From positions 1,188 to 65,187 of the forward strand of contig JBAZCR010000004.1 of NCBI GenBank assembly GCA_041654895.1: a DNA stretch of 64,000 nt, given 5' to 3'. The notes under the pieces are model-generated. The model saw only the letters and a program-made list of their open reading frames with translations, searched no databases and was not told the DNA's origin. Shown here piece after piece: positions 21,145-26,265 of the stretch. The translations under genes were made by a program, and so were the position numbers. The stretch's first letter is position 1. Each line of letters begins with the position of its first letter. Origin of the DNA: Candidatus Pacearchaeota archaeon. GTDB lineage: Archaea > Nanobdellota > Nanobdellia > Pacearchaeales > GW2011-AR1.

Positions 21145-21903
21145 TTATCTTCCCATTGAAAAAATAATACCAACTCCAATACCAAGACTAACATCATTTG
21201 TAAATGGATTATAAATACCACCTACTAAAAATCCAGGTCTCATATTAATATAGGGTCTTGATTTTTCATCGTGTTTAGTCCAACTATCTATATCATTAAT
21301 AATAAATCGTTCATCATTAGTAGTAACAGAAATTATATATTGTTCATCTCTTCTAAACAATCCTTTTCTTCTATACCCAGTAATTATATTTACTTTTAAT
21401 CCATCAACTTTAAATGTTGATTCAATATCAGAATTGATTATATCGGATGAATCCATAAAACATAATACATCTAAAGATGCTGTAACAAATGTAGTTACTA
21501 TACTGTCTTTCTGTTCAGACTTTAATGTGAATCTATTTGTGTTTGAATCAAGTATATCCTTATCAATTATAACAGTATCGTATTTGGTATTTACAATCCC
21601 CTGCATACGTAATCTCTGATAAGCATTCGATATTATATTTAATTCTTTTTCTAAGTTTTTCTTTTCGTTGTATAAATCAGAATTGAGAATTTTTAATTCT
21701 TTGTTTGTAGATGATATTGCCATCTTTTCAGATACCAATAAATCATTTTGTGTTCGATATATATTAATAGTATCATTGATTGCTTCAATATTAGAATTTT
21801 GCCTTTGTATATTTCTTTTTAACATATTATTAGTATTGCAAACCATACCTAATGATAACACCAAAATCACAATAGTTATTATTAAATATTTAGATTTAAT
21901 CAT
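21145..21903 (-). CDS. membrane-anchored protein
   Basis: ATG at 21903 after AAGGAG (the track start would overlap tRNA-Trp); N-terminal TM helix. Confidence 0.5.
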   Translation of the reverse strand: MIKSKYLIITIVILVLSLGMVCNTNNMLKRNIQRQNSNIEAINDTINIYRTQNDLLVSEKMAISSTNKELKILNSDLYNEKKNLEKELNIISNAYQRLRMQGIVNTKYDTVIIDKDILDSNTNRFTLKSEQKDSIVTTFVTASLDVLCFMDSSDIINSDIESTFKVDGLKVNIITGYRRKGLFRRDEQYIISVTTNDERFIINDIDSWTKHDEKSRPYINMRPGFLVGGIYNPFTNDVSLGIGVGIIFSMGR

Positions 21904-21921
21904 ATAAACTCCTTTTAAAAG

Positions 21922-21995
21922 TGGCAAGGGCAAAGAGAATCGAACTCCTATCTACAGTTTTGGAGACTGTTATGTTACCATTACAACATGCCCCT
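21922..21995 (-). tRNA. tRNA-Trp (CCA)
   Basis: Acceptor AGGGGCA/TGCCCTT, loop CTCCAAA, discriminator G, CCA encoded. Confidence 0.85.
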
Positions 21996-22900
21996 TTTAA
22001 AATATTTATATAATTGAATTAGGTTGAGATTACGCCTTTTGTGTTGATCCTTTTGATTCCGTACCATAACGATGCAACTCATTATGTTAAAATCTTATCC
22101 ACTTTCTCTTGAAAGTAGACCAACATTGCTGCCTTTTTTAAAGTGTAGCGGTTCACTTGTCGTATGCAACTATTCAACATTCAAATTACCCTCTATCTTG
22201 CGGACAGTTCACGGTCGCTAAACCATTAGGTGCATTTTCCTATCAACAGATTCTTTCCTTGCGAGAAATCATCTACCTACATTCAATACTAATTGTGCAG
22301 GATTAAGCAACTTTCATCACATACCGGTTCGGTCTTTGCATTTTAGTTAGGTCTATTCAAGGATTTGAACCTTAAACATTCAGATTGACGATCTGACGCT
22401 CTACCATTGAGCTAAATAGCAACCGATTGAGATGTGCCGAACCAGTGACTTCATAATATTTTGTACTACGAAATATCACACACCTCGTAAGTTTCATCTT
22501 GCGGATTACTTCTCGGATTTTCAAGACTAATGATACCTATAATTATAGATGTACCAAAAACCTTTCAATCTGATATAAAGCTCTTGTTTGCAGGACTCGA
22601 ACAATATATCTACTCTTTTCCCTCATAATTGGATGCTGGATAGGTGAAAAATATGTATCCCTACATATTTAACAGATGCTTTTGGTTATTACACCCTTTA
22701 CCGTCATCTTCCTTACTCAATTCCAACTTGTAATTGAAATTTGCAGGGATGAGCTTGCTTAATTAGACCATTTTATTGGTGGTGGTTAATCGGATACCCA
22801 CCTTTATATGTTTCACAACATACTATCTTTTATGTCAAATCTTTATGATTTGACAAACCATTTCAAGCAACGGTTATTTTTTTCTATATTTTCAAAGAAC
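21996..22900 (-). ncRNA. large ORF-free structured RNA candidate (about 0.9 kb) with an embedded tRNA-like domain
   Basis: Own promoter at 22907-22935; no ORF of 60 aa or more on either strand; GNRA-capped hairpins at 22649-22670 and 22807-22822; hairpin at 22834-22854; repeated motifs. Confidence 0.55.
22350..22421 (-). tRNA. tRNA-like, Asp-type (GTC) with C33 and a mispaired acceptor end
   Basis: D, anticodon and T arms fold; loop TCGTCAA; the first 2 acceptor pairs are mismatched; enclosed by a 9-bp helix (22437-22445 with 22324-22332). Confidence 0.45.
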
Positions 22901-22906
22901 AATACT

Positions 22907-22935
22907 AATATAATTTAAATCAAAATCAAAATCAA
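22907..22935 (-). promoter_or_regulatory. promoter for the large ncRNA
   Basis: Minus strand TTGATT, 17 nt, TATATT, then AGTATTGTTCTTTGA. Confidence 0.65.
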
Positions 22936-22960
22936 GTCTTTTTTTATTTATTTTAAAAAA

Positions 22961-23308
22961 TGGAGATAAGGGGAGTCGAACCCCTGTCCACAATTACATC
23001 CTAATAAATTTCTACAAGTTTAGTTTGTATTTTATATTCATCTAATAAGCATCTACAAACAAATTCTAATTAAATATATGTTCATTTTTCTAATCCTATT
23101 ATTGGAACAACCAAATAGGAATGCGTTATCTTATTTATTCATTCTACAATCGATAATTTATTATAGAATATAGCAACTTTTAGTTAAGCTGCTACAGCAA
23201 AAGAATAATCTTCAGCATTTATAATTTAGTAGATTTTTAAGAGGCCAACTACTATCCTCTACTTGCAATTCATTATTCCACAATCATGTCGAAACCAAAT
23301 ATATCCCC
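22961..23308 (-). ncRNA. ssrA: tmRNA (SsrA), tag AEDYSFAVAA
   Basis: 5' GGGGATATATTTGGTTTCGAC; G3-U70 acceptor; tag frame GCTGAAGATTATTCTTTTGCTGTAGCAGCTTAA; 3' GGACAGGGGTTCGACTCCCCTTATCTCCA. Confidence 0.9.
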
Positions 23309-24944: not shown

Positions 24945-25697
24945 ATGTCAGACAGAATTATTTATTATCTTTATAAAACCACAAATTTGATCAATAATAA
25001 AATTTACATCGGTGTTCATCAAACTAAAAATCTTAATGATGGTTATCTTGGTTCTGGTCTAAATCTTCAAAGAGCTATTAAAAAATACAGTAAACATAAC
25101 TTCAAAAAAGAAATCCTAAAATACTTTGACAACGAAATCGATATGTTTACCGAAGAAATTAAAGTTGTTAATTCTGATTTCATTAAACGTAAAGACACCT
25201 ACAATATAGTTGAAGGTGGACGTGGTGGTAGTAAACAATTAGTGAAATTAGCACAACAAGCATTACAAGAAAAATATGGTAGTGATTGGAGAAAAGAACA
25301 CATTAAAAACGCAACCCAAGCATTACAAGAAAAATATGGTAACGATTTTATGAAAATCCTCAATAAAAAAAGTGTAAAATCTCTTCAAGAAAAATACGGT
25401 GATGATTGGCATAAAATAATCGGTTTAAAAGGTCAAGAAACTCTCAAACAAAAATATGGTGATGATTGGCACAATATAATTAGTAAAAGAGGCCGACAAA
25501 AAGCATTATCACCCGAATCTAGAGCCAAACGTATAAATTCCTTTAAAAATGTCAACCACCAACAAGGTTCAAAAAATTCACAATATGGAACAATGTGGAT
25601 TTACCATACCGACACGAATCATAACATGAAGATTAAAAAAGATGAACCAATTCCTAAAGGTTACATCAAAGGTCGTAAATGTCAAAGAACAAAATAA
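24945..25697 (+). CDS. GIY-YIG homing endonuclease
   Basis: IYYLYKTTN...KIYIGVH...GYLGSG; four LQEKYG(D/S)DW repeats; opposite strand to the flanking tRNAs. Confidence 0.8.
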   Translation: MSDRIIYYLYKTTNLINNKIYIGVHQTKNLNDGYLGSGLNLQRAIKKYSKHNFKKEILKYFDNEIDMFTEEIKVVNSDFIKRKDTYNIVEGGRGGSKQLVKLAQQALQEKYGSDWRKEHIKNATQALQEKYGNDFMKILNKKSVKSLQEKYGDDWHKIIGLKGQETLKQKYGDDWHNIISKRGRQKALSPESRAKRINSFKNVNHQQGSKNSQYGTMWIYHTDTNHNMKIKKDEPIPKGYIKGRKCQRTK

Positions 25698-26091: not shown

Positions 26092-26165
26092 TGGCGGGAT
26101 GACGAGTTTCGATCTCATTACCTCTGACTTGTGGGCCAGTGCTCTCCCGATTGAGCTACATCCCC
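26092..26165 (-). tRNA. Val-like tRNA with a 6-nt anticodon loop (CCACAA; CAC if U33 is absent), G1-G72 mismatch
   Basis: D arm TAGCTCAATCGGGAGAGCA; stem CTGGC/GTCAG encloses only 6 nt; CCA encoded. Confidence 0.45.
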
Positions 26166-26189: not shown

Positions 26190-26265
26190 TGGCAGGGGTG
26201 ACGGGTTTCGATCCCGCTACTTTCAGATTGACAATCTGACGTTCTCCCAATTGAACTACACCCCT
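26190..26265 (-). tRNA. tRNA-Asp (GTC)
   Basis: Loop TTGTCAA; discriminator G; CCA encoded. Confidence 0.85.

Follow-up and report, generated by a model that had tools for sequence, protein, structure and literature searches.

What is encoded at positions 21996-22900 of this stretch of contig JBAZCR010000004.1, where 0.9 kb appears empty? The whole 64,000-nt stretch, hereafter the window, belongs to a phage genome and has ~26% GC, and between these two positions neither strand carries an open reading frame (ORF) of 60 aa or more. This absence had been reported in an earlier reading from sequence alone (hereafter the sequence-only reading) and is confirmed here, the longest ORF being 50 aa. 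We conclude with high confidence that the ORF-free stretch is a single GOLLD RNA of ~835 nt (22855 to 22021, minus strand), built of two domains and a linker with a tRNA-like insert that probably does not decode, and, by homology, a likely component of an RNA cage. It adds a member to a known family of giant phage noncoding RNAs, which assemble themselves into RNA cages, and does not found a new class. The family was reportedly described by Weinberg et al. in 2009. A trait expected of its members is a rise in expression during phage lytic growth. The element and its two halves are as follows.

22021-22855, minus strand: complete GOLLD RNA, ~835 nt, delimited by Rfam, by a covariance model (CM) and a hidden Markov model (HMM) of relatives, by a junction motif and by folding stability (z = -4.8)
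22021-22486, minus strand: GOLLD 3′ domain (P14-P27), the universally conserved half, matched by RF02032 with 169.9 bits
22487-22855, minus strand: GOLLD 5′ domain, lineage-variable and outside the Rfam model, recognised by homology to the 5′ halves of Rfam-verified GOLLDs and by covariation

The Rfam GOLLD model (RF02032), which describes only the conserved 3′ domain, matched 22021-22486 on the minus strand over its full length (model positions 1-416 of 416). The match scored 169.9 bits, above the gathering score of 150, with an E-value of 6e-46. An HMM of the 3′ domain built without the window gave 234 bits on the window. For comparison, GOLLD loci were gathered from IMG/VR with two degenerate patterns, and all 26 comparison loci had full-length Rfam GOLLD matches (161-219 bits), most of them among tRNA genes. 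Size, phage context, location in a tRNA array and a tRNA in the linker are published traits of the family (PMC12286853, PMC12990946). GOLLD RNAs exceed 800 nt; their 3′ domain is conserved throughout the family and their 5′ halves are poorly conserved (PMC12286853). In the reference RNA env-38, which has 833 nt and was seen by cryo-electron microscopy (cryo-EM) as a protein-free closed cage, a 14-mer of D7 symmetry, residues 1-420 form the 5′ domain and residues 421-833 the 3′ domain (Kretsch et al., 2025; PMC12286853). The RNA in the window shares the length (~835 vs 833 nt), a variable 5′ domain of ~370-420 nt followed by the conserved 3′ domain, a P14 hairpin with an A-rich L14 loop, a linker-closing pseudoknot, a variable linker able to hold a tRNA and the setting in a phage tRNA array. 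The model score, the two domains, the covarying helices, the pseudoknot-closed linker with its tRNA and the phage origin beside tRNA genes thus all point to GOLLD. The suggestion of a GOLLD-class giant ornate noncoding RNA with a nested tRNA, made from sequence alone, is therefore supported by the full-model match and by covarying homologs for both halves. The elements of the 3′ domain and linker used below are these.

22429-22486, minus strand: hairpin P14, from the Rfam alignment, stems 97-100% paired
22325-22444, minus strand: pseudoknot helix that closes the linker, the 9-nt P14 'bulge' UGGUUCGG (22437-22444) with CCGAACCG (22325-22332)
22333-22428, minus strand: variable linker J13/15, coinciding in the alignment with the insert region that the Rfam model leaves unstructured
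22350-22421, minus strand: tRNA-like element, a pseudo-tRNA-Asp with anticodon GUC, found by ARAGORN and by the Rfam tRNA model (55 bits, model positions 3-68 only)
22161-22325, minus strand: long-range 3′-domain helix, GGUAUGUGAU (22316-22325) with GUUGCAUACG (22161-22170), bracketed by Rfam, 9 of 10 pairs formed

The L14 loop of P14 is CAAAA (22459-22463) and contains the conserved A-run. A 9-bp helix of distant flanks (22437-22445 with 22324-22332) had been proposed to enclose the tRNA-like domain; eight of its pairs do form a covarying pseudoknot, and the ninth position, C22445, belongs to P14. Seven of the eight pairs covary, with 94% of the cells paired in 19 sequences. For P14 and the linker helix together (19 sequences), 96.8% of the cells are paired as compared with 34-52% in slid controls, and 61 cells are compensatory as compared with 5-11. 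The helix is real but already known: the covariation table published for env-38 includes its pairs, from 467-559 onward (PMC12286853). It is missing from the Rfam covariance model because it crosses P14. The long-range helix of the 3′ domain contains one copy of AGUUGCAUACG and the string GUGAUGA, which had been taken for a k-turn or C-box; the string is instead accounted for by this helix (22316-22325 with 22161-22170) and a conserved GAAAG.

The tRNA-like element lies within J13/15. A 72-nt domain at 22350-22421 with a mispaired acceptor end had already been noticed by eye, and ARAGORN and Rfam both recover it. Its three arms (D, anticodon and T) are canonical, with 7 nt in the anticodon loop. 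In the acceptor stem, U1·C72 and G2·A71 are mismatched and 5 of 7 pairs are left; the discriminator is C73, no CCA is encoded, and the sequence folded alone forms no acceptor stem. The element hence has neither the 7-bp acceptor stem nor the suitable discriminator of a canonical elongator tRNA. Both are found, together with CCA, in the tRNA-Asp(GUC) of the array (26190-26265; 7-bp stem, G73), the anticodon arm of which is identical to that of the nested element at 21 of 22 positions.

This defect is general among the relatives. The subgroup sharing the 5′ domain comprises 25 distinct Rfam-verified GOLLDs (24 relatives from viral contigs and the window), from which 14 nested elements were drawn, and all 14 occupy one common position in the linker. 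None of the 14 distinct elements has a full 7-bp acceptor stem, as opposed to 218 of 244 other tRNAs in the same contigs, and anticodon loops of 6 or 8 nt occur in three of them and in none of the 244. Some nested elements carry suppressor-type anticodons (UCA, CUA), one has a 'Ser' anticodon on a body without the long variable arm, and the near-identical bodies in L076, L099, L071 and L053 differ mainly in the anticodon loop. A fifteenth case (L025, from the broader first locus set) also has a mispaired acceptor end, and a sixteenth (L024, detected only at a relaxed ARAGORN threshold) has unpaired acceptor positions. The loci with nested elements are L050, L053, L057, L064, L066, L071, L073, L075, L076, L081, L083, L091, L099 and L025. 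The nested sequences inspected retain GG in the D-loop and UUC(R)A in the T-loop, so the L-shape is probably preserved. The broken terminal acceptor pairs should disfavour aminoacylation as well as cleavage by RNase P and RNase Z, so that the element would stay covalently within GOLLD as an L-shaped module.

Transfer RNAs in J13/15 have been reported before, for example tRNA-Phe in a Mycolicibacterium GOLLD, and 'inhibited storage' has been suggested for them (PMC12990946). Applied here, a genuine tRNA-Asp would be stored in the cage and later excised for translation. Storage or exposure of linker tRNAs has been raised in the literature (PMC12286853, PMC12990946), and the canonical arms, the 55-bit score on the Rfam tRNA model and the close identity to the anticodon arm of the array tRNA-Asp are all in its favour. 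The two mismatches, C73 in place of G73, the missing CCA and the failure of the sequence to form an acceptor stem alone speak against it, as do the canonical tRNA-Asp(GUC) already present in the array and the family-wide record, in which no nested element has a full acceptor stem and some have aberrant anticodon loops or a misplaced 'Ser' anticodon. Moreover, expression of the GOLLD-internal 'pseudo tRNA' of mycobacteria was not detected (PMC6582537). We therefore regard storage of a usable tRNA-Asp as quite unlikely. The nested element is better described as a retained tRNA-like module that probably does not decode.

Why such a module would be retained invites a more daring idea, which we offer as a long shot. 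The linker insert could be a tRNA mimic that by design never matures and serves as bait or decoy in the cage: its L-shape and elbow would be intact, its systematically broken acceptor end would be ignored by RNase P, RNase Z and synthetases, and its anticodon loop would be free to change. About 14 copies (env-38 model) would be displayed inside the cage to a tRNA-binding factor, which might be an enzyme that modifies or processes tRNA, or a host anticodon nuclease with a part in defence against phages. If this were true, GOLLD would act as a trap made of RNA only, side by side with the phage tRNA array.

Upstream of the Rfam match, the 5′ domain contains the following elements.

22834-22854, minus strand: first hairpin, 8-9 bp, loop AUAAA, z = -7.4 against shuffles, at the start of the R1 match
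22807-22822, minus strand: 6-bp hairpin with a GNRA loop (GUGA), z = -4.1, R1 helix 3
22781-22802, minus strand: hairpin GGUGG/CCACC with a 12-nt loop containing conserved YCC(U/G)A, R1 helix 4
22649-22670, minus strand: 9-bp hairpin with a GGGA loop, z = -9.5 against shuffles
22572-22610, minus strand: nested helices GAUAU/AUAUC (22606-22610 with 22572-22576) and GUUC/GAGC (22599-22602 with 22580-22583), enclosing the CUGCAAAC loop region
22479-22570, minus strand: end of the 5′ domain, with helix GAUU/AAUC (22567-22570 with 22516-22519), a long hairpin (22528-22553), a CCGCAAG hairpin and the junction motif

One could object that the GOLLD core is only the 3′ 466 nt and that the upstream ~370 nt are an unrelated leader, a spacer or a separate small RNA. 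The Rfam model does end at 22486, poor conservation of GOLLD 5′ halves is already known, and alignment is poor in the middle of the 5′ half. The upstream sequence nevertheless has homologs in many independent GOLLD contigs, where they immediately precede the Rfam match at a constant distance. With the 5′ half of the window as query and the selection motif removed, nhmmer recovered the upstream halves of three Rfam-GOLLD loci (E = 1.7e-6, 2.2e-5 and 5.8e-4), and 50 shuffled 5′-half queries gave no match in the same search. In the opposite direction, an HMM of the 5′ halves of 16 relatives (window and motif excluded) had a single match in the 64-kb window, at 22828-22552 (E = 1.7e-16), and the covariance model R1, built from the first ~115 nt of the relatives only, also had a single match, full-length, at 22855-22743 (59.1 bits, E = 8e-12). 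These HMM and CM matches identify 22487-22855 as the GOLLD 5′ domain, and the conserved RNA therefore runs from ~22855 to 22021, ~835 nt. In agreement with this, the junction motif CUUGAAA-N8-AGUA-N4-GCA-N15-GGUGUG (22479-22525), also present in Rfam-verified GOLLD loci, continues unbroken across the 22486/22487 boundary, the 5′ half contains covarying helices, and the total length is in line with env-38. The whole 835-nt element has a minimum free energy z-score of -4.8 against shuffles. A GOLLD confined to the 3′ 466 nt is accordingly very improbable.

The three hairpins that had been picked out by eye in this half (22834-22854, 22807-22822 and 22649-22670) are all present, with the z-scores listed above. 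Two of them had been described as GNRA-capped, which as a conserved feature holds for one. The GUGA hairpin keeps a GNRA loop in the relatives (GUAA, GCAA or GUGA), and as R1 helix 3 all five of its pairs covary, with 100% of the cells paired across 26 sequences; in the relatives of the GGGA hairpin the loop is UGGC, UGGU or UUCGC. R1 helix 4 likewise covaries in 5 of 5 pairs (94.5% of the cells paired), and compensatory changes occur in 7 of the 9 pairs of the nested helices at 22572-22610. The string TTCGAGT, formerly labelled a T-loop, makes up the 5′ side of GUUC/GAGC, a helix that covaries; k-turn and T-loop are both unlisted for GOLLD in the cryo-EM motif table (PMC12286853).

Over larger sections the covariation is strong. 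At the start of the 5′ domain (section A, 26 distinct sequences), 96.4% of the cells are paired as compared with 27-43% in slid controls, and compensatory cells number 121 as compared with 8-20. At the end of the domain (section C, 22610-22489, 19 sequences), the corresponding values are 90% against 38-50% and 83 against 9-26. None of 500 shuffles reached the observed covariation score.

The recurring motifs that had been noted are also unlikely to be fortuitous. ATCTTGCGGA occurs twice with 0.02 expected, and both copies are C-GCAA-G tetraloop hairpins; CCTGCAMA occurs three times in the region, with 1.19 expected for the entire 64-kb window; and AGTTGCAT(A)CG occurs twice with 0.04 expected. 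Long-range 9-nt inverted repeats (22755-22763 with 22302-22310; 22565-22573 with 22380-22388) were considered as further pairings and rejected, being at about chance level. The first of them is a perfect complementarity between two conserved blocks, AUUAAGCAA of the 5′ domain (22755-22763) and UUGCUUAAU of the 3′ domain (22302-22310), of which the relatives keep only AAGC/GCUU.

The loop of the hairpin at 22649-22670 could make a further contact, either a pseudoknot or an inter-subunit kissing interaction, and we record it as a lead. Its GGAU is complementary to AUCC at about 22636-22640 (minus strand), and by eye the relatives show the loop/strand pairs UUGGC/GCCAA, UGGU/ACCA and UUCGC/GCGAA, with the strand 10-20 nt downstream. 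MAFFT register shifts prevented a formal count of these pairs; an automated loop-strand test was positive in 8 of 18 sequences, where shuffling gave 5.3 on average, which is not formally significant, and wrong stems were picked in several sequences.

Two remaining alternatives can be dismissed. AT-rich DNA is expected to have few long ORFs in any case and the nested tRNA is defective, as would suit functionless remains of a decaying tRNA array (AT-rich spacer with a tRNA pseudogene) or a hidden small protein gene, but the family-level covariation in three separate sections, the significant CM and HMM matches and the fact that the longest ORF (50 aa) runs across conserved RNA helices and the tRNA-like element leave hardly any room for either. 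The ROOL-like context (phage, tRNA arrays) and the inability of the sequence-only reading to assign a class by eye would suit ROOL itself, some further kind of large ornate RNA, an intron that splices itself or an entirely new class. Any of these is practically eliminated by a permissive Rfam scan of 21850-23050 with all 4227 families, which returned only GOLLD (above its gathering score), two tRNAs, the tmRNA end and two far-sub-threshold chance matches, with no match at E <= 1 for ROOL, HEARO, OLE, introns or RNase P. Thus, of the searches that the sequence-only reading had proposed, the covariance-model search was positive for GOLLD and negative for ROOL, HEARO, introns and RNase P, homologs with covarying helices were found for both halves, and BLASTN for related phage contigs found none (21900-23000, no match among 50,697 phage records). 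Its ROOL option and its remark that this could be a new class are contradicted by the same scan.

By analogy with env-38, the GOLLD RNA of the window would fold as two separate domains and self-assemble without protein into a closed multimeric cage, in which the 5′ domains would be caps, the 3′ domains rings, and the linker with its tRNA-like domain would project into the lumen. The env-38 linker is disordered and faces the cage interior (PMC12286853, PMC12990946). Two contact elements appear to be recognisably kept. In env-38, A34 and A35 of a 5′-domain GAAA loop (G33-A36) make the inter-subunit bridge B1 (PMC12286853 Suppl. Table 2), and the GUGA hairpin at 22807-22822 is the predicted positional equivalent of this loop, by order of elements and not by residue-level alignment. 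Similarly, the L14 A-run makes the inter-subunit A-minor bridge B6 in env-38 (PMC12286853 supplements), to which the A-rich L14 of the window would correspond.

Several observations weigh against parts of this picture. The first hairpin is longer than in other GOLLDs; in the relatives its loop pairs instead with a CUAUGC strand ~90 nt downstream, and in the window this long-range pairing is weak (5 of 6 pairs, two of them G-U). In mid-5′ domain (about 22680-22742) the alignment with the relatives is poor, and the L11a GAAA loop, conserved in the relatives and in env-38, is not evident there. The predicted block to excision of the tRNA-like element is deduced from general substrate requirements, a mispaired acceptor end being poor for RNase P and RNase Z. 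The transcript ends of the GOLLD RNA are likewise predicted, and cage formation is proposed by homology to env-38. Of ten published bridges, two were matched, by position only, with an env-38 sequence text that is incomplete (815 of 833 nt). A single-sequence nhmmer search of the window with this text, the 3′ end of which is at odds with the primer, found no similarity; residue-level mapping of bridges was dropped because the supplement text is lossy. The published GOLLD Stockholm alignment covers the 3′ end only. Finally, the stoichiometry may differ, since the 3′ domain from Streptococcus agalactiae forms 8-, 10- and 12-mers (PMC12990946).

Compared with the family at large, the RNA of the window lies at the low end of the score range and is very AT-rich (38% GC over the Rfam-matched 3′ domain); unlike the GOLLD reference, it is directly downstream of a phage tmRNA. 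Close parallels are the GOLLDs of mycobacterial tRNA arrays (Behra et al., 2019, PMC6582537; Morgado et al., 2020, via PMC12990946), where GOLLD also lies in a horizontally transferred or phage-type tRNA cluster and also has an internal tRNA or 'pseudo tRNA'. Those clusters are in actinobacterial chromosomes and include an HNH endonuclease, whereas the window is a ~26% GC phage with a T4-like polymerase. ROOL is likewise a large ornate RNA of phages and prophages near tRNAs, an RNA-only cage with a disordered internal linker, but it is unrelated in sequence and secondary structure. A tRNA-shaped fold within a longer RNA, with the D/T loops of the elbow kept, is also known from the plant-virus tRNA-like structures and from MALAT1 mascRNA, which may be compared as functional analogies only; these are 3′-terminal and are aminoacylated or cleaved by RNase P, while the element of the window is internal, is without a paired acceptor or CCA and is predicted to resist cleavage.

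Rfam annotates only the 3′ 466 nt of such loci. The comparison here delimits the full ~835-nt element together with a 5′-domain subgroup of 25 GOLLDs, and the conserved junction motif and covarying helices could seed a full-length GOLLD model. The acceptor-end defect bears on the role of the cage, as it speaks against a plain store of usable tRNAs and in favour of a tRNA-like module that is retained. Only the delineation of the subgroup and the systematic nature of this defect go beyond the literature consulted, and the defect was anticipated by the report of a single mycobacterial 'pseudo tRNA' (PMC6582537).

The second search pattern, the junction motif, yielded 63 viral loci, about half of which have no Rfam match and are not GOLLD, mostly from sample 3300045988; these were removed from every denominator. 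Three chance matches from one metagenome (L077, 8914-8993; L085, 7347-7426; L093, 1980-2059) are not GOLLD and match the Rfam RT-18 RNA just above its gathering score. In genome contigs the motif scan gave 35 loci, none of them GOLLD (positive control, 234 bits), and therefore no host was inferred.

The surroundings of the RNA are defined by three features.

21922-21995, minus strand: tRNA-Trp, bounding the region downstream
22961-23308, minus strand: transfer-messenger RNA (tmRNA), Rfam 144.9 bits, tag peptide AEDYSFAVAA, bounding the region upstream
22907-22935, minus strand: candidate sigma-70-like promoter, TTGATT-17-TATATT, matching the consensus at 9 of 12 positions, ~45 nt upstream of the conserved RNA

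The end of tRNA-Trp at 21995 is where the sequence-only reading had placed it. The RNA had also been credited with a promoter of its own. The TTGATT-17-TATATT site does exist, but it is treated as a candidate only because promoter-like sites are equally common in shuffled AT-rich sequence (16 sites against 11.8 ± 3.4 in shuffles, not above chance). Three tandem TTGATTT repeats at 22913-22935 (minus strand) form its -35 region and offer alternative -35 registers. From its context, the RNA would be made during infection as part of the tmRNA/tRNA gene block, with transcription starting at this weak promoter-like site (22935-22907) or reading through from upstream. The spacing to neighbouring tRNAs in the relatives is highly variable, too much so to decide between a dedicated promoter and read-through. 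No terminator was found in the 25 nt between GOLLD and tRNA-Trp, and RNase P, in cutting tRNA-Trp at its 5′ end, may set the 3′ end of the GOLLD RNA.

The window contains 24 tRNA genes and the tmRNA, all on the same strand, and GOLLD lies within this block, with the phage tmRNA ~105 nt upstream of its 5′ end. GOLLD beside phage tRNA arrays is the usual arrangement, and a tmRNA sharing the array recurs in at least one relative, L083, which has a (permuted) tmRNA ~1.9 kb from its GOLLD. A replication module is encoded as well: window proteins include a family-B (T4-like) DNA polymerase, a DnaB-like helicase, a ribonucleotide reductase, an SbcC-like nuclease, a clamp loader and a deoxynucleoside monophosphate kinase. 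The best identity of the DNA polymerase is ~35%, and the phage is without a close cultured relative. The sole ORF inside the array (24945-25697, plus strand, opposite to the tRNAs; 250 aa) lies in mid-array and has no Pfam family; the HNH endonuclease of the mycobacterial cluster is at a comparable place. An additional tRNA at 26094-26165 (minus strand; Rfam 38.9 bits), not called by ARAGORN, may be a degenerate array tRNA. Array tRNAs with a CUA anticodon ('tRNA-Pyl' according to ARAGORN) are absent from the array of the window and flank GOLLD in L050, L066, L082, L087 and L091; being of the amber-suppressor type, they hint that some related phages recode TAG.

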